From contig NZ_CP045650.1 in assembly GCF_009557235.1 (NCBI RefSeq), positions 2,160,001 to 2,192,000 on the forward strand: a DNA stretch of 32,000 nt. Direction: 5' to 3'. The DNA comes from Acinetobacter wanghuae. GTDB taxonomy: Bacteria; Pseudomonadota; Gammaproteobacteria; Pseudomonadales; Moraxellaceae. Positions 1 to 16,703 of the stretch are shown in pieces (the first letter of the stretch is position 1; the number at the start of each line of letters is the position of its first letter). The position numbers were made by a program, and so were the translations under genes. The notes beneath the pieces are model-generated. The model saw only the letters and a program-made list of their open reading frames with translations. It ran no database searches and was not told the DNA's origin.

Positions 1-2132
1 TCGCTGTCAGAGTCAGAATCGCTGTCGCTATCAGAGTCGGAATCGCTGTCGCTATCAGAGTCAGAATCGCTATCGGAGTCAGAATCACTATCGCTGTCTG
101 AGTCACTGTCGCTGTCTGAGTCGGAATCACTATCGCTGTCTGAGTCAGAGTCGCTGTCGCTATCGGAGTCAGAGTCGCTGTCAGAATCAGAATCACTGTC
201 GCTATCAGAGTCGGAGTCGCTATCAGAATCGGAGTCGCTATCGCTATCAGAGTCGGAGTCGCTATCAGAATCAGAGTCGCTGTCGGAATCAGAGTCAGAA
301 TCGCTGTCGCTATCAGAATCAGAGTCGCTATCGCTATCAGAGTCGGAATCGCTGTCGCTATCAGAATCGGAGTCGCTGTCAGAGTCAGAATCGCTGTCTG
401 AGTCAGAGTCGCTGTCGCTATCAGAGTCAGAATCGCTGTCGCTATCAGAGTCAGAATCGCTGTCGCTATCAGAATCAGAGTCGCTGTCGCTATCAGAGTC
501 AGAATCGCTGTCGCTATCAGAGTCGGAATCGCTGTCGCTATCAGAGTCAGAGTCGCTGTCGCTGTCAGAATCAGAGTCGCTGTCGCTATCAGAGTCGGAA
601 TCGCTGTCGCTATCAGAATCGGAGTCGCTGTCAGAGTCAGAATCGCTGTCTGAGTCAGAGTCGCTGTCGCTATCAGAGTCAGAATCGCTGTCGCTATCAG
701 AATCAGAGTCGCTGTCGCTATCAGAGTCGGAATCGCTGTCGCTATCAGAATCGGAGTCGCTGTCAGAATCGGAGTCGCTGTCAGAGTCAGAATCGCTGTC
801 GCTATCAGAGTCGGAATCGCTATCGCTGTCAGAATCGGAGTCGCTGTCAGAGTCAGAATCACTGTCGCTGTCAGAGTCGGAATCGCTGTCACTATCAGAG
901 TCGGAATCGCTATCAGAGTCGGAATCGCTATCAGAGTCAGAATCGCTGTCGCTATCAGAGTCAGAATCGCTGTCAGAGTCAGAATCGCTGTCGCTATCAG
1001 AGTCGGAATCGCTGTCGCTATCAGAGTCAGAGTCGCTGTCGCTGTCAGAATCAGAGTCGCTGTCGCTATCAGAGTCGGAATCGCTGTCGCTATCAGAATC
1101 GGAGTCGCTGTCAGAGTCAGAATCGCTGTCTGAGTCAGAGTCGCTGTCGCTATCAGAGTCAGAATCGCTGTCGCTATCAGAATCAGAGTCGCTGTCGCTA
1201 TCAGAGTCGGAATCGCTGTCGCTATCAGAATCGGAGTCGCTGTCAGAATCGGAGTCGCTGTCAGAATCGGAGTCGCTGTCAGAATCGGAGTCGCTGTCAG
1301 AGTCAGAATCACTGTCGCTGTCAGAGTCGGAATCGCTGTCACTATCAGAGTCGGAATCGCTATCAGAGTCGGAATCGCTATCAGAGTCAGAATCGCTGTC
1401 GCTATCAGAGTCAGAATCGCTGTCAGAGTCAGAATCGCTGTCAGAATCAGAGTCACTATCGCTGTCAGAATCGGAATCGCTATCGCTGTCAGAATCGGAA
1501 TCGCTATCGCTGTCAGAGTCGGAGTCGCTGTCGCTATCAGAATCAGAGTCGCTGTCAGAGTCGCTGTCAGAGTCAGAATCGCTGTCGCTATCAGAGTCGG
1601 AATCGCTGTCGCTATCAGAGTCAGAATCGCTATCGGAGTCAGAATCACTATCGCTGTCTGAGTCACTGTCGCTGTCTGAGTCGGAATCACTATCGCTGTC
1701 TGAGTCAGAGTCGCTGTCGCTATCGGAGTCAGAGTCGCTGTCAGAATCAGAATCACTGTCGCTATCAGAGTCGGAGTCGCTATCAGAATCAGAGTCGCTG
1801 TCTGAGTCAGAGTCGCTGTCGGAATCAGAGTCAGAATCACTGTCGCTGTCAGAGTCGGAGTCGCTGTCGCTATCGCTATCAGAATCAGAGTCACTGTCGC
1901 TGTCTGAGTCGGAATCGCTGTCGCTATCAGAATCGGAATCACTGTCGCTGTCTGAGTCAGAGTCGCTGTCGCTGTCAGAATCGCTGTCAGAATCAGAGTC
2001 GGAATCGCTGTCAGAATCAGAGTCGCTATCGCTATCAGAATCAGAATCGCTGTCGCTATCAGAGTCAGAGTCGCTGTCAGAGTCAGAATCGCTGTCGCTG
2101 TCTGAGTCAGAGTCACTGTCGGAATCAGAGTC
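1..2132 (-). repeat. Coding (Asp-Ser)n dipeptide tract, >=355 dipeptides, continuing past the window edge; 6-nt period with an underlying ~24-nt unit
   Basis: In the adhesin frame every + strand codon is (a/g)tc (=GAT/GAC Asp), alternating with gct/act/aga/gga/tga (=AGC/AGT/TCT/TCC/TCA Ser). The recurring + strand 24-mer is tcagagtcagaatcgctgtcgcta = (GAT AGC GAC AGC GAT TCT GAC TCT). Confidence 0.95.
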
Positions 2133-5100
2133 GGCATCGGCATCAGCGTCGGCATCTGCGTCGGCATCCGCATCGGCATCAGCATCCGCATCGGCATCGG
2201 CATCGGCATCGGCATCGGCATCAGCATCCGCATCGGCATCGGCATCCGCGTCGGCATCAGCATCAGCATCGGCATCCGCATCCGCATCGGCATCGGCATC
2301 GGCATCGGCATCGGCATCCGCATCAGCATCCGCATCGGCATCTGCATCCGCATCCGCATCGGCATCAGCATCGGCATCAGCATCGGCATCAGCATCGGCA
2401 TCGGCATCAGCGTCGGCATCAGCATCAGCATCCGCATCCGCATCCGCGTCGGCATCCGCATCGGCATCGGCATCGGCATCGGCATCGGCATCCGCGTCGG
2501 CATCAGCATCCGCATCCGCATCCGCATCGGCATCGGCATCCGCATCCGCATCGGCATCGGCATCGGCATCAGCATCCGCATCGGCATCTGCATCTGCATC
2601 CGCATCGGCATCCGCATCGGCATCAGCATCGGCATCAGCATCGGCATCGGCATCGGCATCAGCATCGGCATCGGCATCCGCATCGGCATCAGCATCAGCA
2701 TCCGCATCCGCATCGGCATCCGCATCGGCATCAGCATCCGCATCGGCATCCGCATCAGCATCCGCATCTGCATCGGCATCCGCATCGGCATCGGCATCCG
2801 CATCGGCATCAGCATCCGCATCGGCATCCGCATCAGCATCGGCATCCGCATCCGCATCGGCATCCGCATCCGCATCCGCATCGGCATCAGCATCGGCATC
2901 CGCATCTGCATCGGCATCCGCATCGGCATCGGCATCCGCATCGGCATCAGCATCCGCATCGGCATCAGCATCCGCATCGGCATCCGCATCAGCATCGGCA
3001 TCGGCATCAGCATCGGCATCAGCATCCGCATCGGCATCAGCATCCGCATCGGCATCGGCATCAGCATCGGCATCCGCATCAGCATCCGCATCGGCATCGG
3101 CATCGGCATCCGCGTCGGCATCAGCATCCGCATCAGCATCGGCATCGGCATCCGCATCCGCATCAGCGTCGGCATCCGCATCGGCATCAGCATCCGCATC
3201 AGCATCGGCATCGGCATCCGCATCCGCATCCGCATCGGCATCGGCATCGGCATCGGCATCAGCATCGGCATCCGCATCGGCATCAGCATCGGCATCAGCA
3301 TCCGCATCCGCATCCGCATCAGCATCGGCATCGGCATCCGCATCCGCATCGGCATCGGCATCCGCATCGGCATCGGCATCAGCATCCGCATCAGCATCGG
3401 CATCCGCATCCGCATCCGCATCCGCATCGGCATCGGCATCAGCATCAGCATCGGCATCAGCATCGGCATCAGCATCAGCATCAGCATCGGCATCGGCATC
3501 AGCATCGGCATCCGCGTCGGCATCAGCATCGGCATCGGCATCGGCATCCGCATCGGCATCCGCATCGGCATCAGCATCAGCATCAGCATCAGCATCAGCA
3601 TCGGCATCCGCATCCGCATCGGCATCGGCATCGGCATCGGCATCAGCATCGGCATCGGCATCGGCATCAGCATCGGCATCGGCATCGGCATCCGCATCCG
3701 CATCGGCATCGGCATCGGCATCCGCATCGGCATCCGCATCCGCGTCGGCATCAGCATCCGCATCGGCATCAGCATCAGCATCGGCATCCGCGTCGGCATC
3801 AGCATCCGCATCGGCATCCGCATCCGCATCCGCATCGGCATCAGCATCAGCATCAGCATCAGCATCAGCATCAGCATCAGCATCAGCATCCGCATCGGCA
3901 TCGGCATCAGCATCGGCATCAGCATCAGCATCGGCATCCGCATCCGCATCCGCATCAGCATCGGCATCGGCATCGGCATCACCAAAGTCTACGATTAGAT
4001 TCGTTGGATCAGATGCATTGCCTGCTGCGTCAGTTGCTGTCACATCAATCGCATTACCATCTACTAATGGACTATCTAAGGTAACTTTAAAGTCACCATT
4101 AGCATCAGCTTGACTCGTTCCAATGGTATTACCATCCTCGTCTTTTACAGTGACAATTGAATTAGGTTCAGCTTTACCCGTCACCTCTAGACCATTTTGA
4201 CTTACCGCTACATTTGTAGGCGCATCCGGTGCTGTGGTATCTGGTGCATTAACTACTGTTGGATCAGATTCGTTGCCTGCTTCATCTTTGGCAGTGACGT
4301 TGATTTCTTCACCGTTGGTTAATGGATCTTCAAGCTCTACGCTGAAATCACCATTGGCATCGGCTGTGCCTTCACCAATTACATTGCCATCTTTGTCAGT
4401 GATCGTGATCGTTGACCCAGGCTCTCCTTTACCTGTCACAGTTGAGCCATCTTCGCTGACTACAACATCACTTGGCGCTTCTGGTGGCGTAGTGTCTGTA
4501 GAGGTATCTGCAACTGCAATCGCTGGTTCAGATTCATTACCCGCAGCATCTGTTGCAGTAACTTCAACTTCTGTGCCATCTTCAACAGGCGTATCTAAAG
4601 TAACTTTGAAATCACCATTGGCATCGGCTGTGCCTTCACCAATTACATTACCATCTTGGTCCTTAATGGTGACTTTGGCATTTGGCTCAGTTTTTACCAC
4701 GACGGTTTTACCATCAAAACCAGTGACTTCAGGTGCATTTGGTGCAGTTGTGTCTGGTGCATTAACTATTGTTGGATCTGATTCATTCCCCGCTGGATCC
4801 TTCGCTGTAACATTGATTTCTTCACCATTGGTTAATGGCTTATCAAGTTCAACACTAAAGTCACCATTTTCATCAGCAGTGCCTTCACCAATTACATTGC
4901 CATCTTTGTCAGTGATCGTTATGGTTGAGCCCGGCTCTCCTTTACCTGTCACAGTTGAGCCATCTTCGCTGACTACAACATCACTTGGCGCTTCTGGTGG
5001 CGTAGTGTCTGTAGAGGTATCTGCAACTGCAATCGCTGGTTCAGATTCATTACCCGCAGCATCTGTTGCAGTAACTTCAACTTCTGTGCCATCTTCAACA

Positions 5101-6731
5101 GGCGTATCTAAAGTAACTTTGAAATCACCATTGGCATCGGCTGTGCCTTCACCAATTACATTACCATCTTGGTCCTTAATGGTGACTTTGGCATTTGGCT
5201 CAGTTTTACCCACGACGGTTTTACCATCAAAACCAGTGACTTCAGGTGCATTTGGTGCAGTTGTGTCTGGTGCATTAACTATTGTTGGATCTGATTCATT
5301 CCCCGCTGGATCCTTCGCTGTAACATTGATTTCTTCACCATTGGTTAATGGCTTATCAAGTTCAACACTAAAGTCACCATTTTCATCAGCAGTGCCTTCA
5401 CCAATTACATTGCCATCTTTGTCAGTGATCGTTATGGTTGAGCCCGGCTCTCCTTTACCTGTCACAGTTGAGCCATCTTCGCTGACTACAACATCACTTG
5501 GCGCTTCTGGTGGCGTAGTGTCTGTAGAGGTATCTGCAACTGCAATCGCTGGTTCAGATTCATTACCCGCAGCATCTGTTGCAGTAACTTCAACTTCTGT
5601 GCCATCTTCAACAGGCGTATCTAAAGTAACTTTGAAATCACCATTGGCATCGGCTGTGCCTTCACCAATTACATTACCATCTTGGTCCTTAATGGTGACT
5701 TTGGCATTTGGCTCAGTTTTACCCACGACGGTTTTACCATCAAAACCAGTGACTTCAGGTGCATTTGGTGCAGTTGTGTCTGGTGCATTAACTATTGTTG
5801 GATCTGATTCATTCCCCGCTGGATCCTTCGCTGTAACATTGATTTCTTCACCATTGGTTAATGGCTTATCAAGTTCAACACTAAAGTCACCATTTTCATC
5901 AGCAGTGCCTTCACCAATTACATTGCCATCTTTGTCAGTGATCGTTATGGTTGAGCCCGGCTCTCCTTTACCTGTCACAGTTGAGCCATCTTCGCTCACT
6001 ACAACATCGCTTGGTGCATCTGGAGCTTTGCCATCTACAGTAGATGTCGTTTCAGCAGATGGATTACCCGCAGGATCTGTAGCAATGACTTTAATTACAT
6101 CGCCATCTTCTAGTCCTGGATTTGGTACTGACCATTTACCATCAGGACCTGCTGTTGTTTCCGCTTTTGAACCGTCTGGGAACGTTACTGTAACTTTAGA
6201 ACCAGGTTCTGCTGTACCTGTGATCGGATCTGTTTGATTGATTGGGTTAACAATAGGTGCTGCTGGAGGAGTTTTATCGCCTTGCCAATTATTATTATCT
6301 GAACTATTATGAGCAGCCGCTGCGACTACTCCAACACCCAATAGACCACCCAGTATTGCACCCCATGGTAAAGCGGCACTTGCACTAGTGCCCAACAATG
6401 CAACCAAATCACCCTCTAACGGATGATAGGTAATTGTCGTTAAAAGTTGATCTGCACCGTCGACAAACTCTGCCCAGTACAGCTTCCCTTCACTTTCGAA
6501 TACAAGCAGATTGGCATTTGGATTATCTACAAAAAAATTATCTACAATAATTTGTTCGCCATTTTTGAGTGTAACAACAGCCGCATTACCTTGGCGTGTA
6601 ATACTTTCCACATCCTCAATATTGGCTTTAATTTTTACAACCGACTCCTGATTAAGGGTAATATTTTTATTCGAGGTGGTACTTTCGAGTACCCCCCCAT
6701 TATTTTTGGATATTATGTCTACCTGCGTCAT
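1..6731 (-). CDS. Giant BapA/Bap-family surface adhesin (presumed T1SS substrate), N-terminal 2243 codons only; C-terminus lies beyond the left window edge. N->C: BapA prefix-like domain, hydrophobic segment, ~9 Ig-like domains, (Asp-Ala)x308, (Asp-Ser)x>=355
   Basis: ATG at 6731-6729 is preceded by GGAG 8 nt upstream (revcomp of 6732-6743 = GGAGTTTTCCCT). The minus-strand frame (codons on + coordinates 3k..3k+2) has no stop down to position 3. I checked codon by codon at 6731-5990, 4260-3960, 2140-2100 and 1-20, and every 60-nt line in 1-3961 starts in the same phase ('tc'). The N-terminus is [68 protein letters not shown]...[15 protein letters not shown]...[22 protein letters not shown]. 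It parallels the Salmonella BapA prefix pattern (RQGN..., GE..I.NF, LV.E..G.L.W, PW.LGG hydrophobic stretch). Repeated ~85-aa modules have the form G[KT][GAT]EPGS.[IV]T[IV]....G...G..TAD.NGDF.V.L...L..GE...VTA.D.AGNES, typical of bacterial Ig-like adhesin repeats. The gene is not in the ORF track because it is open at the window edge. Confidence 0.88.
2133..3980 (-). repeat. Coding (Asp-Ala)n dipeptide tract, 308 dipeptides (616 codons)
   Basis: + strand codons alternate atc/gtc (Asp) with ggc/cgc/agc/tgc (GCC/GCG/GCT/GCA Ala). It is in frame with the Ig region at 3981 (reads ...[13 protein letters not shown]) and with the DS tract at 2132. It includes perfect hexamer runs, e.g. (tcagca)x8 at 3841-3888. 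Confidence 0.95.
4228..5996 (-). repeat. 513-bp tandem repeat (171 aa = two Ig-like domains per unit), ~3.4 copies
   Basis: Unit boundaries are 4228, 4741, 5254 and 5767. 4741-5253 and 5254-5766 are identical by line-by-line comparison. The fourth partial copy stays identical to 5996 (first mismatch 5997 c vs 5484 g). Copy 1 (4228-4740) has a diverged first ~190 nt, then is near-identical. Confidence 0.95.
6692..6698 (-). repeat. G7 homopolymer (C7 on + strand) inside codons 12-14 of the adhesin CDS
   Basis: + strand 'acccccccat' at 6691-6700. Coding strand reads AAT GGG GGG GTA (N11 G12 G13 V14). Confidence 0.9.
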
Positions 6732-7195
6732 AGGGAAAACTCCGATGCTTGTTTGTTATAATGATCAAATGCTAGGCACGCATCGATTATTATTAACAGC
6801 AAGGAGTAGTCGATAAAACCCTCAGCAAACTGTGATTCATTCAACACTGTTTATTCTTATTTTGATTTTAAATACGATAACTCATTGATTTAAAAATTAA
6901 GTGAATAATTTATATAAGTATTTATAACTCTACATTTAGATGGATTATAAAATTTTTAATTTTGTATATTATTGAAATAGAACATTTTAAATATTTGTAC
7001 ACGTGGCATATATTTTTAATATTAAATTGTAATTTAAACACATAAACTTACACAAAATTAACCCATATTAACTCAAGCATTTACTATAGAAACAAACAAG
7101 GCAACACAACCAAAACAATCATTTCATTTTTTAAGTGAATAGTTAACATATTTGTATAATCATTGATAATATTTAGATACATATTCTGATTAATA

Positions 7196-7240
7196 TTTAA
7201 AAAAATTAGAGGTTATTACTATATTAATAACAACCTCTAA
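7196..7240 (-). terminator. Rho-independent terminator after the HAD hydrolase gene
   Basis: Stem ttagaggtt (7206-7214) pairs with aacctctaa (7232-7240). The A-run at 7199-7205 is a T-run on the minus strand, just downstream of the stop at 7248-7250. Confidence 0.65.
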
Positions 7241-10499: not shown

Positions 10500-11441
10500 C
10501 TATGCATGTTGTCGCTGTTTTGATCCTGTCTGTTGCTGCTGTAACTGCTTAAGAATGGCGGTGAATTTTAATTCTTCTAAACGCAAATCTAAATACGACT
10601 GCTGAATCATAGCTTGGCTTAAATCAATCCCTTTATAATTAATCAAAACAAAGTCATCTTGTAGCGCTTGCAACATCTCAGCCAAGTTATGCCCATTTAA
10701 CTGTGCTAAATATAAATCCGCTTTCGTATTAAATGCCATGCTGAGTAACTCAATGGTGCTATGACGGCGGCTATCATCAACATAATTACAGCTTGCCACT
10801 TGATTGTGATCCTGAGCAGTTTGAATCTGTGCACGAATTTGAGCCAGACGATGTGCAGCATCATGTTCACTATAATTTTCAATTAATTGATGGACTAAAG
10901 TATTTCCCGATACATTTAATACAGTCGGGTAGCCATGCACTTTATGTTCTAAAGCAGCAACAACTTCTTGTAAGCGATGTTGTTCTTCAGCTTGCTTATA
11001 ATAGCTTTGTAATTTTACTCTTGCCTGCTCATCTACATCGAATAAAGCTTGTTTTTGGTATTGATTTACGTAGTCTTTGACCCGTTCAATGTAAGCTTTA
11101 ATATCCTCGATCATAATTGAAGCATTCAGTTTGGTCACTTCAACAAAGTTGTCGGCTTGCAGTTGTCGACTCATAACGTACTGTTCAATATCGCAAATAT
11201 CTTGGTATTTTTTGAATTTATTGAGTTCAGTCTTAAGCCCGCTGCTTTGTACACGCAGTTGCGTCAATTCATAATTGAGATCATCGGTTTTCGCCTCGTA
11301 TTCGGCCAGTTTTATACGTGCGTGATCGAGATTTTCTTGTAAAACTTTATGATTAGTTCGCCAAGAATTTGTCCGAGCAAGCACCCAAACCAGTGCGATC
11401 ATCAGCACAATGACGAGAACGAATAAACCCATACTCAACAT
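10500..11441 (-). CDS. Membrane-anchored coiled-coil protein with a DUF4041-like C-terminal region (no nuclease domain)
   Basis: ATG at 11441 with AGGAA 6 nt upstream. N-terminal TM is MGLFVLVIVLMIALVWVLA, followed by a long heptad-rich helix. The C-terminal AFNTKADLYLAQL...INYKGIDLSQAMIQQSYLDLRLEELKF resembles the DUF4041 pattern AFN.E.D....IN....I...YL.LKLEEL that I recall. Confidence 0.65.
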   Translation of the reverse strand: MLSMGLFVLVIVLMIALVWVLARTNSWRTNHKVLQENLDHARIKLAEYEAKTDDLNYELTQLRVQSSGLKTELNKFKKYQDICDIEQYVMSRQLQADNFVEVTKLNASIMIEDIKAYIERVKDYVNQYQKQALFDVDEQARVKLQSYYKQAEEQHRLQEVVAALEHKVHGYPTVLNVSGNTLVHQLIENYSEHDAAHRLAQIRAQIQTAQDHNQVASCNYVDDSRRHSTIELLSMAFNTKADLYLAQLNGHNLAEMLQALQDDFVLINYKGIDLSQAMIQQSYLDLRLEELKFTAILKQLQQQQTGSKQRQHA

Positions 11442-12700: not shown

Positions 12701-13268
12701 GGGAGATGCGCTATGGGCGAAAAAGCGCAAAATAACAAGGTGAATGCAGGCTGTCAATCGTGCTTTGAATTTTTCAGTTTTAGAGAGATGAATGACAAGA
12801 TGAAGACGATCAGGATGGGTTTTGAATGATGAACATCATAAGAAAGTGTGCATATTATTCGAAAGTCTGTTTTATTTTATTATTCTATCAAGAAATTTTT
12901 AAGGGGTTGGGAAAACTGATTATGGTTTACTTCAACTATCAATCTTGGTAAGACTTGATCTTATAGCCTATAAACTTGTGGTCTATAGCGTCCTAAGCCG
13001 AATCGAGACCTTTTGGGTTCGTACTGCACTCGCGTTTTGCGCCGCTCACAGCATGCTACTCTTTTCGATCCCATCACACCCTTGAGATCTATAGTAGCCA
13101 AAGCGCTGTGGGATTAATTTCCTTTGTTTTTTTAATTTTGACTATTTTTGAAAAATTATTTCTTAAACATAGGTGTAAATGAAAAAATACGATCAAACTG
13201 CTTTATTTAAGCTTTTTAATTTCTTAAAAAGACATCTTTTTGGAAATTTTTATCCAAAAAATGTGCCT

Positions 13269-13523
13269 TTATAAGGTCTGTAACCACTGTGCGGTAAACC
13301 ACCAACCACTTAATGCACACATCCCCGACATGATGGTTGCAAGGACTTTGTTCATTTTTGAAAGTGGCGAACTGAGTACCTTAATATTAATGACATAAGC
13401 GAGTGCAAAATAAGCTAAACCCACGACACCACAAAAAGGCACAAACAACAACGGCCATGCTGCATAGAGGTGCGAGGATTTCGTCAATGTGTTGGATTCT
13501 GCGCTTTGATGTGTCATGTCCAT
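13269..13523 (-). CDS. Small hypothetical membrane protein (2 predicted TM helices)
   Basis: 84-aa ORF with two hydrophobic stretches (AAWPLLFVPFCGVVGLAYFALAYVI; ATIMSGMCALSGWWFTAQW) and a GAGAG-like RBS. No recognisable family. Confidence 0.45.
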   Translation of the reverse strand: MDMTHQSAESNTLTKSSHLYAAWPLLFVPFCGVVGLAYFALAYVINIKVLSSPLSKMNKVLATIMSGMCALSGWWFTAQWLQTL

Positions 13524-13646
13524 GCTGCGGCTCTCTTTTAATTACTCAAATATGCACTGTGATGCATCAAAATATCCCACTGGATAAAGATCATGCTGTG
13601 CTTTAGATCTATTTAGCAATTTTTGCGCCAATGTTGCACGACGGCG

Positions 13647-14357
13647 TTATTCAAATGAAATTTCATCAAAGTCTTTAATCTTTGATAAATACATCGGTGC
13701 GATTTGAATATTCGACCATGTTTCTTTAAAGCGTTCAGGCTGCTCTGGATTCATTTTGTTAATATTGTCTTTATACAGTTTTTTGCCCGTTATGAAATTG
13801 AGACTGGTGAATGACTCGACCATAGGTCCGTAGTTGCTTGAATGGTCATAACCAATCAATCGCATATCATTGTGTTCAATACGGAATTTATAGCCCCAAT
13901 AGCCGTAGCGACCATGTCCATAATGAAGTTCTAAAATGCCGTTTTTAATTTCAGAAGATAACTCCGGCGCGAAATACACCCCACCGTCTTCTTGGTCGGA
14001 ACTAAAACAGTTTAAATTTTTGACCAGCGTTTGATATGCGATTTTATTTTTCTGCCCCAACAGCACAATGATGCCACGGCGATTACGATCTACGACTTCA
14101 TCAAAGCGATTGCGCACCACCTTTTTCGGGTCAGCTGCTTTCACAATGAGTACCGTATCTTTAAGACCATCTTTGTTTAAATCGCCATGTACAGCACTAA
14201 ATAGGCTGTAATATTTTGGAATATAACTTTGAAAACGCGCAGTGTCCTTTTGTAATTGGATTTGTTCAGCACTGAGCACTTCTTTTGCTGTTGTTGTTTG
14301 TGCCAAAAGTCCGAGCATGATCACCATCATGATGCCGCTCATTTTATTTTTCATCAT
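13647..14357 (-). CDS. Secreted/periplasmic hypothetical protein with a Sec signal peptide
   Basis: Signal peptide MMKNKMSGIMMVIMLGLLAQTTTA|KE; AAGGA RBS. An FG-GAP/EF-hand-like DLNKDGLKD motif is present; otherwise no family recognised. Confidence 0.75.
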   Translation of the reverse strand: MMKNKMSGIMMVIMLGLLAQTTTAKEVLSAEQIQLQKDTARFQSYIPKYYSLFSAVHGDLNKDGLKDTVLIVKAADPKKVVRNRFDEVVDRNRRGIIVLLGQKNKIAYQTLVKNLNCFSSDQEDGGVYFAPELSSEIKNGILELHYGHGRYGYWGYKFRIEHNDMRLIGYDHSSNYGPMVESFTSLNFITGKKLYKDNINKMNPEQPERFKETWSNIQIAPMYLSKIKDFDEISFE

Positions 14358-15385: not shown

Positions 15386-16636
15386 TTAACTATCGTTACT
15401 CGCTTTCGCAGGTGTTATAGAATCAATAACATCTTCAACCTTATTAATAATCTTTTCACTTACTTTATTTAAACCAGTTTTGTCGATAATCTCATGAGTT
15501 GGGCTACCATGATTATTTGAATCCATTAACCTTAAGGGTGCTTCTTCAAGTCTAGTAAGCGCCACATTAAATAGTCTAGCTTCAAACTCTGGATCAATTT
15601 TTGCTGCTTCTTTTTTATAGCCTTCATATGCCTTGGCAACAGATGCTTTAAAGTCATAATCCTCAGCAAGTTTAAAGCGCTGACTAATCTGTTTAGTCGC
15701 TAACCAAGCAAACCACAATGGAGCTAAAACACTAGTAAGAGATAAAATTATTTGAATCCAGATAATCCCCCAATTCAGATTTGGTTCAGTAAGTGACGTA
15801 GTTAATACTTGAATACGCTGATGACCAATCCAAGCTCCAACGCCTAATGCAAATAATAATCCACCTACCCATAAACGAATTGACCATTTTAAACTTGAAG
15901 CCCTTTGATCGAAAGCTAAAGCCAAGCCCTTTGTCGTTGTAATACGATATGCCTCTTCACAATTTTTTATCAACTGTTTAGCTTGTTCATTTAGTTCAAT
16001 AATAGATTTTAACTGAGCCTCTACAGAAGTTTTATGTTCTGTAATTTTCTTTCTATCAAAAGATGAATCCTCATGAATTTCTGTAACTTTTGCTCTTGCT
16101 TCTTTCAGATTATGTAAGTCTGTAGGTAATGATTCTGCCGCTTCTGTAGCATCCTTTATTAATTGTATTTGATCAGATAATAAATCTTTATTTGGAATTA
16201 AGTTATCTAACTCTGTTTGAATACTTCTTAAACGACTCGATAATGCTTTTGGCAGTGCTTTGTTATCTTGTAATGTTTCCCAACTCATTAAAGGTGAGAT
16301 GATTTGTCTAATCCAATCAAGTGTAGAAAAATAAACAGGGATTGCTTGCGGTCCATTGCCATTGAACATATGTGGCACAGTCTCACTGTACATCAACTGC
16401 AATCGAGATGGTAATTCCTCTAACTGTTTTTGAGTTTCTTCATCAATATTAGTTAGTTTTAACGCTCGAATACTTTCTGCTATTTTAAAAGGGATATCTG
16501 CTAAATCATGCCTTGTTAATGGAGGATGTGCCCATCCATATACATCTCTTAATACCCGATCATCATTCCAACATCCTAAAACATGTTCTGAAAGCTCATC
16601 TAAAGCATCACATAAATTTACTATCACTTCATTCAT
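15386..16636 (-). CDS. Hypothetical protein: ~270-aa helical/coiled-coil N-terminal region plus a C-terminal 2-TM module; AT-rich relative to neighbours
   Basis: ATG at 16636 preceded by GGGGGAG. TM segments are IRLWVGGLLFALGVGAWIG and WGIIWIQIILSLTSVLAPLWFAWLA, followed by an amphipathic KLAEDYDFKASVAKAYEGYKKEA. No family recognised. Confidence 0.8.
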   Translation of the reverse strand: MNEVIVNLCDALDELSEHVLGCWNDDRVLRDVYGWAHPPLTRHDLADIPFKIAESIRALKLTNIDEETQKQLEELPSRLQLMYSETVPHMFNGNGPQAIPVYFSTLDWIRQIISPLMSWETLQDNKALPKALSSRLRSIQTELDNLIPNKDLLSDQIQLIKDATEAAESLPTDLHNLKEARAKVTEIHEDSSFDRKKITEHKTSVEAQLKSIIELNEQAKQLIKNCEEAYRITTTKGLALAFDQRASSLKWSIRLWVGGLLFALGVGAWIGHQRIQVLTTSLTEPNLNWGIIWIQIILSLTSVLAPLWFAWLATKQISQRFKLAEDYDFKASVAKAYEGYKKEAAKIDPEFEARLFNVALTRLEEAPLRLMDSNNHGSPTHEIIDKTGLNKVSEKIINKVEDVIDSITPAKASNDS

Positions 16637-16703
16637 ACACTCCCCCAAATAAAAAACACTCCAATTCACATTAGAGTGTTTTTTAAACAATATCAATAAC
16701 TTT

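Follow-up and report, generated by a model that had tools for sequence, protein, structure and literature searches.

A very long Asp-Ala/Asp-Ser tract, probably an internal extender, in a putative type I-secreted adhesin of Acinetobacter wanghuae

We analysed a stretch of 32,000 nucleotides from Acinetobacter wanghuae (contig NZ_CP045650.1, positions 2,160,001 to 2,192,000, hereafter the window), the left end of which is occupied on the minus strand by the gene of a large adhesin. After a BapA-prefix domain and nine immunoglobulin (Ig)-like repeats, this protein continues into 308 Asp-Ala (DA) pairs and then into at least 355 Asp-Ser (DS) pairs, up to the edge of the window. The best explanation, which we consider probable, is that it is an adhesin exported by a type I secretion system (T1SS), in which the (DA)308-(DS)≥355 tract forms an internal, disordered and polyanionic extender. 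By its domains the protein appears as a very long representative of the dipeptide-tract BAP-like adhesins known from Acinetobacter, which are part of the BapA/Bap/LapF family. The gene is composed as follows:

1..6731, minus strand: adhesin open reading frame (ORF), 3' end incomplete; at least 2,243 codons, start ATG at 6731-6729, upstream in-frame stop at 6758.
6740..6743, minus strand: GGAG ribosome-binding site, 9-12 nt 5' of the ATG, read from the sequence.
6363..6731, minus strand: BapA prefix-like domain, predicted all-beta; residues 1-123; PF22783 at 98.1 bits (cutoff 27), NF033677 at 73.4 bits (cutoff 35).
6312..6377, minus strand: "PW + Gly/Ala-rich" hydrophobic segment; residues ~119-140; maximum Kyte-Doolittle 19-residue mean 1.84.
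3981..6260, minus strand: nine Big_6, Ca2+-stabilised Ig-like extender repeats; residues ~158-917; PF17936, E = 2e-221, in 9 stretches.
2133..3980, minus strand: (Asp-Ala)308 tract; residues 918-1533; from the translation; Tandem Repeats Finder (TRF) period 12/18, 87% matches.
3..2132, minus strand: (Asp-Ser)355 tract, open at the window edge; residues 1534-2243; from the translation and TRF.

The frame is open from the Ig-repeat region through the DA and DS blocks, with no stop before the window edge. Together the two blocks hold at least 663 Asp in 1,326 residues (3,978 nt), with zero interrupting codons and no indel, 2 bases being left over at the edge; the limits and counts given for both blocks by the original prediction, which was made from the sequence alone, are exact to the base. 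The DNA underneath is heterogeneous. In the DA block Asp is encoded by GAT (297) or GAC (11) and Ala by GCC (138), GCG (90), GCT (74) or GCA (6); in the DS block Asp is encoded by GAC (206) or GAT (149), and Ser by a mixture of AGY and TCN codons (AGC 143, TCT 136, TCC 46, AGT 17, TCA 13). Over the 1,326 codons all of this variation is synonymous. Chance is not a credible source of such tracts, and the variation of the DNA beneath an invariant protein indicates that selection acts at the protein level, on the dipeptides.

We take DA/DS as the coding frame because it alone joins a region with strong domain support. The other frames that are open across the tract (SASA..., MPMP..., HQHQ...) were rejected as genes, being shadows of the repeat, and so was a plus-strand GTG-started ORF of 667 aa (4234-6237), antisense to the Ig repeats; such shadow ORFs, across the tracts and the Ig region, could mislead gene callers. 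The start at ATG 6731 agrees with the first Met of the homologues in alignment, and its ribosome-binding site lies in an AT-rich intergenic region of about 475 nt (6732-7205). The promoter scan upstream of the adhesin gave promoter-like matches that were not above the shuffle expectation.

The first 917 residues hold, in this order, the BapA-prefix domain, the hydrophobic segment and the nine Big_6 repeats, the latter also matching the Ca_tandemer model NF033510 (308.7 bits, cutoff 50). Two of the features on which the BapA/Bap/LapF family is recognised, the prefix domain and tandem Ca2+-stabilised Ig-like repeats, are found, so that the proposal of a Gram-negative BapA-prefix adhesin with about nine Ig-like domains is borne out by PF22783, NF033677 and the nine copies of Big_6. 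AlphaFold2 models the prefix as an all-beta domain (pLDDT 85-86) and the hydrophobic segment with low confidence. The latter is kept in 57 homologues (Kyte-Doolittle mean 1.67); it might be a linker threaded through a pore, or be associated with the membrane. A Ser/Gly/Asp-rich linker follows this segment across the family (P0137-P0159, L012, L056, L088, L104, L122), and in many relatives the DA tract starts directly after it. By sequence, the N-terminus found only a spurious gyrase match in the PDB, and the LapA/MpIBP-type retention module NF033682 has no match in the adhesin, against 119 bits in the enterobacterial DA-tract protein L036.

The original prediction took the tract for a polyanionic tail. 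The window edge interrupts the ORF, and this tail is very probably an artefact of that edge: the tract would be internal, and followed by a C-terminal domain of about 270 aa with a T1SS signal. When the commonest 36-mer of the DS tract is compared with metagenome contigs, exactly one match is obtained, contig L131. This contig starts inside a tract of about 99 SD pairs, which has exact stretches of up to 61 nt in common with the tract of the window and runs in frame into ~265-270 residues beyond the repeat. The region after the tract scores 145 bits with NF045618 (positions 445-671; cutoff 975), 121.9 bits with NF045619, the C-terminal model of BapA/Bap/LapF (cutoff 180), and 55 bits with TIGR03661, the C-terminal target domain of type I secretion (cutoff 17.6); at about 270 aa it is too short for the whole 681-position domain of NF045618. 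An independent JGI contig, L132 (protein P0286), is 99.5% identical and has an intact end, "...TTLQDLLDNNQLLF", also given as "...ISIDRDGTASTSYNPTELLTLQNTNTTLQDLLDNNQLLF". The homologues of this C-terminus are all from Acinetobacter.

Since in L131 the DS tract leads, with the frame kept, to a domain that bears a T1SS signal, and since the tracts are internal in related adhesins, we judge the tract of the window to be probably internal too. It is predicted to run into "...KLYAQQDAGQYRF..." or a homologue of it, about 270 aa long and ending in "...ISIDRDG...TTLxxLLxNNxLxF". The full-length N-terminal homologues end in "...SIDRDG...TTLDELL.N.QII", and two close ones score above the cutoff of 17.6 bits on TIGR03661 (P0140, 48.6 bits; P0166, 40.4 bits). 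Beside the DA-tract relatives stand genes for a TolC-like outer membrane efflux protein (OEP) and an ABC/C39 protein (L036), for OEPs (L056, L122 and L127), for LapD (L127 and L106) and for LapG (L106). The adhesin family appears type I-secreted, as had been proposed, on the strength of TIGR03661 in homologues and in the contig with the matching tract and of these neighbours.

The end of L131 itself has an additional peculiarity: the last ~20 adhesin codons are replaced (1092-3737) by an Rhs core/YD-repeat toxin C-terminal fragment (RHS_core 73 bits, Rhs_assc_core 61 bits), after which come two small ORFs with no family matches that may be immunity genes. The contig has a coverage of 4.7x, and its junction at nt 1092 may be either an orphan Rhs insertion or rearrangement, or a low-coverage chimera.

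The following mechanism can be proposed. A surface adhesin of the BapA/Bap/LapF family would leave the cell C-terminus first by the T1SS, and the tract would sit between the N-terminal module with its nine Ig repeats and a C-terminal region of about 270 aa comprising a VCBS-like domain and the T1SS target signal. Because every second residue carries a negative charge, the tract could not fold in the cytoplasm and would be intrinsically secretion-competent. Outside the cell it would become a self-repelling, highly extended chain, probably binding Ca2+ and Mg2+, and would add tens to hundreds of nm of reach together with a dense negative charge; this would be the job done by the Ig-like extenders of RTX-type adhesins and by the SD stalks of staphylococci. 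The length would change through unequal recombination between the tract's own repeats, a cheap way of lengthening it, leading to length variation from strain to strain. The fraction of charged residues in the tract is 0.5, all negative, which is the regime of the staphylococcal SD repeats. The contour is about 460 nm for the tract, an upper bound, versus about 40 nm for the nine Ig domains; the 0.4-0.5 um calculated in the original prediction likewise holds as a maximum. The identity of the missing C-terminus, the disorder and extension of the tract, its cation binding, the anchoring by the N-terminus and a role in adhesion or biofilm are all what we infer.

Several points weigh against this explanation. 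The 3' end of the adhesin lies beyond the window edge, and L131 and L132 are unbinned metagenome contigs, placed in Acinetobacter by homology alone, whose link to the A. wanghuae gene appears circumstantial. T1SS genes are found neither in the 25 kb upstream of the adhesin nor in L133, the 3' flank of an Acinetobacter homologue. That the prefix would be the cell-proximal end gets no backing from its modelled fold, which has no counterpart among solved retention modules: in Foldseek the best E-value for the isolated prefix domain is 0.11, with MpIBP (5irb) absent from the matches, and inclusion of an Ig domain brings 5irb only as a weak match with a root mean square deviation of 19 Å. De Gregorio et al. 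assumed the opposite orientation (PMC4647330). Disorder, extension and cation binding would hold here by extrapolation from staphylococcal SD data, none of which concerns (DA)n. Finally, in the strain represented by L001, with ~95% nucleotide identity, the DNA is collinear up to window position 7167 and the adhesin is then absent.

Synteny with L001 stops 436 nt upstream of the adhesin start. As this strain has no gene at the locus, the adhesin would be dispensable. Past the junction (13179-13952) L001 has a fragment resembling an insertion sequence (IS), then genes for OprB, a PQQ dehydrogenase and a TonB receptor, and this suggests that the loss or rearrangement of the adhesin locus may have been IS-mediated. 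A short ORF at the junction resembles the N-terminus of an IS transposase (MKYVDSKKLSETQFKRYTGISWSAF...). Contigs L003 and L009 have the junction of L001 type; the metagenome contig L008 is of window type and matches the upstream region exactly to its own end, so that the junction of the window is present in independent data. The other syntenic contigs, found via RraB, stop at or before the adhesin or are devoid of it.

How the tract has grown can be approached through its internal repeats. In the DA tract the longest exact repeat is 71 nt, while the DS tract has exact in-frame duplications of 293, 230 and 170 nt (k-mer script); the Ig array is made of 513-nt two-domain tandem units with 95-97% nucleotide identity (self-BLAST). 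These duplications of tract and Ig array point to what was probably recent unequal recombination. It might then be supposed that the extreme length reflects a neutral, runaway expansion in a dispensable, rapidly turning-over accessory gene, perhaps poorly expressed or being lost, with no more than some acidic linker being required. The very recent in-frame duplications of 170-293 nt would agree with this, as would the absence of the gene from the ~95% identical L001 with its IS-like fragment at the breakpoint, the several metagenome contigs that break just upstream of the adhesin, the disruption of the 3' end of the L131 homologue by an Rhs fragment, and the frequency with which RTX adhesins are acquired, lost or disrupted by frameshifts (bioRxiv 10.1101/2025.09.30.679566). 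Such an expansion is nevertheless improbable: despite abundant synonymous variation, not one of the 1,326 codons shows a non-synonymous change, and the frame is nowhere shifted; the start codon, the ribosome-binding site and the N-terminal domains are intact; and tracts of 300-900 pairs recur in unrelated genera, A. baumannii SDF having one of 701 SD pairs (PMC4647330).

Since the tracts hold exact internal duplications of up to 293 nt, their exact lengths depend on the quality of the source assembly, and short reads cannot resolve such repeats. That the tracts, their lengths or their junctions be an artefact of assembly is however hardly credible. The source matches a complete A. wanghuae chromosome of 2.77 Mb; neither the frame nor the strict alternation is lost anywhere in the 3,978 nt or at the two junctions; the codons are varied enough to offer unique anchors to long reads; independent contigs join a DS tract in frame to the C-terminal domain and, in L008, show the upstream junction; and equivalent tracts exist at ≥120 loci in other genomes.

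A further possibility concerns the role of the tract more than its origin. It could be an active polyanion and not a passive spacer, i.e. a high-capacity binder of Ca2+/Mg2+, metal or mineral; variants of this idea are the cross-linking of the matrix, the binding of cationic polymers or surfaces, the sequestration of cationic peptides, and a Ca2+-driven ratchet for the T1SS. The original prediction had listed a brush, mineral binding, a charge shield and a secretion ratchet as possible roles. The 663 carboxylates are spaced at i,i+2, the Ig repeats next to the tract are of a Ca2+-stabilised family (NF033510), T1SS substrates generally use extracellular Ca2+ binding against back-sliding (bioRxiv 10.1101/2025.09.30.679566), and SD stalks could bind a cationic matrix polysaccharide (PMC10367597). 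Direct evidence is however absent, and the position, the length and the dipeptide of the tract vary freely among relatives, which fits better with a spacer defined by length and charge. We consider active binding rather unlikely as the main role; it is on the other hand compatible with an internal extender, the two not being mutually exclusive.

Adhesins of this general design have already been described in the genus. In the beta-type BAPs of Acinetobacter an alternation of Ser and Asp replaces the Ig repeats (501 pairs in ABSDF785 and 701 in ABSDF2314 of A. baumannii SDF); the type-8 hybrid alpha/beta BAPs of A. haemolyticus have 79 SD or 148 AD pairs (148 AD in TG19602), and a DA-repeat insertion in the N-terminus of a BAP was described by De Gregorio et al. 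in 2015 (PMC4647330). The beta-BAP genes are flanked by lapEBC and lie on a genomic island, and SD-rich adhesins with lap genes are found in Klebsiella and Enterobacter (PMC4647330). The NCBIfam model NF045618 is named "ABSDF2314 family large adhesin". The protein of the window has one of the characters of a beta-BAP, a BAP-like N-terminus together with hundreds of alternating pairs. It resembles the beta and hybrid BAPs by its genus, by a BAP-like N-terminal motif, by long Ser/Asp or Ala/Asp tracts with or without Ig repeats, and by a candidate C-terminal region like that of T1SS substrates, the one of L131/L132, which matches NF045618 at 445-671. It differs from them in that a pure DA and a pure DS block lie downstream of nine Ig repeats, that its N-terminus and Ig repeats are closest to Blp2 and not to BAP, that the candidate C-terminal region has only ~270 aa, and that no lapEBC genes stand on the covered side of the adhesin. 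To our knowledge none of the Acinetobacter dipeptide-tract BAPs has been studied experimentally. The original prediction had found the DA block impossible to place in any described family and had seen in the protein a new Gram-negative/Gram-positive chimera; neither view can be kept, SD and AD BAP-like proteins of Acinetobacter being known since 2015, Ig/dipeptide hybrids among them (PMC4647330), and having their own model, NF045618.

Blp2 of A. baumannii has 728 aa, with four T repeats, a 207-aa C-terminal region and no dipeptide tract, and its knock-out lowers biofilm and adherence in strain AYE (PMC4647330). Our adhesin shares with it a BapA-prefix N-terminus followed by Ig-like "T" repeats, and scores 614.5 bits on the Blp2 model NF040520, over profile positions 1-413 of 730. 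We nevertheless rejected it as a Blp2 orthologue: the score is below the equivalog cutoff of 750, and the protein has at least 2,243 aa, nine repeats and 663 dipeptides. The candidate C-terminus in L131 has no Blp2 match.

The general plan of RTX adhesins comprises a retention module, extenders, a ligand-binding region and a T1SS signal (PMC5550230; bioRxiv 10.1101/2025.09.30.679566). The adhesin resembles the RTX/LapA-type proteins (LapA, MpIBP, SiiE, FrhA) in its proposed order, i.e. an N-terminal module, an extender, a distal C-terminal region and a T1SS signal, and in its Ca2+-dependent Ig-like extenders. It differs from them by a BapA prefix in place of the LapA/MpIBP retention module, and by an extender most of which would be a disordered dipeptide polymer. 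Current surveys of RTX adhesins require Ig-like extenders, and leave out the dipeptide type.

In staphylococci SdrC-F have tracts of 70-85 pairs that are glycosylated, SdgA and SdgB adding N-acetylglucosamine (GlcNAc) to the SD repeats. With region R of Clf/Sdr our adhesin has in common a Ser-Asp polymer built of short units with mixed AGY/TCN Ser codons and, supposedly, the role of an extended spacer stiffened by charge that projects binding domains (PMC10367597). By measurement, the SD repeats of staphylococci are disordered, highly extended and resistant to compaction through charge repulsion (PMC10367597); the likeness to a staphylococcal stalk that was noticed at first is reasonable as a functional analogy. 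The two differ in their envelope, in export by Sec and sortase versus T1SS, in the position next to LPXTG, and in polarity. Membership in Sdr/Clf was rejected: no domain is shared outside the repeat, the host is an Acinetobacter, and the candidate C-terminus has a T1SS signal and not LPXTG. As homology is absent outside the repeat, the likeness is a convergence and not a membership.

The DS block could still be a glycosylated, protease-resistant stalk as in Clf/Sdr. The mixed AGY/TCN codons come in units of 18-24 nt, as in staphylococcal region R, and in staphylococci SD repeats are known to be glycosylated (cited in PMC10367597). We find this very improbable, however: no glycosyltransferase gene is present in the 25 kb covered upstream or in the window, the host is a Gram-negative bacterium, the adhesins of this family pass the T1SS unfolded, half of the tract is DA and offers no site for O-glycosylation, and the SdrD_B match (19.2 bits) is below its cutoff of 29.7, besides the T1SS signal of the candidate C-terminus.

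The distribution of such tracts depends on how they are searched. Searched exhaustively with HMMER, the N-terminal module of 165 aa gave 377 homologues, the closest all from Acinetobacter (A. schindleri, A. cumulans, A. terrestris, A. indicus and A. bereziniae); none of the best 150 of the 377 has a dipeptide tract, and the tract is therefore not a feature of the closest N-terminal relatives. With the whole 917 aa, the homologues were mostly Ig-repeat proteins of P. aeruginosa (43% identity), none with dipeptide runs. The tract-bearing relatives surfaced solely through a census of the DNA pattern, in which one genome for each of 185,579 species was scanned for an encoded (DA)25. By this census, DA tracts are found in relatives that share the BapA prefix.

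The census yielded at least 120 loci with (DA)≥25, in Alpha-, Beta- and Gammaproteobacteria, Firmicutes, Actinobacteria and others. Some of the longest or most relevant are:

Sphingobium sp. AP50 (L070): at least 902 DA pairs.
Zobellella (L104): 661 DA pairs.
Bacillus chungangensis (L034): 580 DA pairs.
Phyllobacterium (L016): 522 DA pairs.
Silvania hatchlandensis (L106): 254 DA and 53 DS pairs, mixed.

Among the matches listed, to which all the counts of this paragraph refer, the tract of the window, which counts at least 663 pairs, stands at the upper end in length without being unique. For 83 tract proteins the locus includes the N-terminus, and 26 of them have the BapA prefix; long DA tracts are thus common, and often belong to BapA-prefix proteins. 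Where a stop codon is within the locus (72 tract proteins), what follows the tract is a non-repeat C-terminus with a median of 246 aa; no more than four of the 72 tracts are true tails, and none of these four is in a match of the BapA-prefix hidden Markov model. Six Gram-positive tract proteins have an LPXTG end. From one relative to another the tract comes before or after the Ig repeats, is DA, DS or mixed, and counts from 25 to more than 900 pairs. In Sphingomonas L012 the prefix, the hydrophobic segment, (DA)80 and Ig repeats precede a C-terminus matching NF045619 above its cutoff (181.6 bits), and so do the prefix, 2 Ig repeats and (DA)359 in Ectorhizobium L072 (279 bits). In the enterobacterial L036, L127 and L106, the LapA retention module NF033682 takes the place of the BapA prefix. 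From this pattern, a BapA prefix, the hydrophobic segment and a DA tract seem to occur together repeatedly.

The nearest architectural twin is from Zobellella sp. DQSA1 (L104; NZ_CP169531, 1712001-1720000): a BapA prefix, a hydrophobic segment, about nine Big_6 repeats and (DA)≥598, with 47% identity to the protein of the window over 764 aa of the non-repeat part. It differs by an extra (DA)63 before the Ig repeats, by having no DS block within its 8-kb locus and by its host, one of the Aeromonadaceae; it is uncharacterised.

Other arrangements were met in the census. The LPXTG proteins with (DA)n and occasional DS are from Staphylococcus simulans (L091), Enterococcus phoeniculicola (L020), Listeria rocourtiae (L047), Salinicoccus (L093) and Microbacterium (L042 and L062); their (DA)n sits where Clf/Sdr carry SD repeats, as a DA version of the classical stalk, and the S. 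simulans protein is Sdr-like with DA replacing SD. In Pseudomonas sp. MYb185 (L088) and Vreelandella malpeensis (L122), a BapA prefix and (DA)89/107 are followed by more than 1,000 residues of "LLGxxGLL(G/S/D)" repeats, these leucine/glycine-rich repeats, which would form an extender or effector region, replacing the Ig domains, and a TolC-like gene comes next. In Listeria monocytogenes (L040; CAUYTK010000002.1, 56001-64000) and Erwinia sp. JUb26 (L021), stretches of "MPMRMRM/TPMP" flank the DA frame; they are this repeat read in a different frame and indicate frameshifts inside the tracts, whether by phase variation, in a pseudogene or through an error of assembly.

The 25 kb upstream of the adhesin are of housekeeping character (HAD phosphatase, ThiD, YjdM, RraB, aconitase, OprB, Fpg, MscL, BipA), and the window contains no tRNA or Rfam features. 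Proteins encoded beside the adhesin match QGA11731, QGA11733 and QGA11738 of A. wanghuae exactly. Between the aconitase and the DUF1451/DUF4126 genes lies an ORF of 436 aa (15386-16696, minus strand) with no Pfam match, replaced in L001 (3626-4961) by a DarT/NADAR pair (DarTG-like); this slot looks like a variable defence-island slot, as far as gene content can tell, and PADLOC on the variable ORFs gave only an LmuB match of 15.5 bits. A protein of 313 aa (10500-11441, minus strand), with only a weak match to PF13250 (DUF4041, "SNIPE" in contig annotations) and no PADLOC match, is kept next to RraB in all A. wanghuae-like contigs.

A. wanghuae is an obscure, animal-associated species, and the direct medical or ecological weight of its adhesin is therefore small; the adhesin is one more example, a very long one, of a design catalogued in Acinetobacter and common across bacteria. 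Beyond this case, we tentatively propose that the acidic dipeptide polymers (DA)n and (DS)n, of 25 to more than 900 pairs, could constitute a distinct and widespread class of "soft" extenders in proteobacterial T1SS adhesins; with the same reserve, this class might often be attached to a BapA prefix and a hydrophobic segment that have no solved structural counterpart. We know of no experimental study of dipeptide extenders in Gram-negative bacteria. As these tracts break short-read assemblies, such adhesins would moreover be systematically under-annotated. If the proposal is true, soft extenders would give what rigid Ig extenders do not: a reach tunable by Ca2+ and ionic strength, a polyelectrolyte brush and a rapid variation of length. 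The A. wanghuae protein, in which pure DA and pure DS blocks come after nine Ig domains, would then be a natural test case, as the two chemistries can be compared within one molecule.

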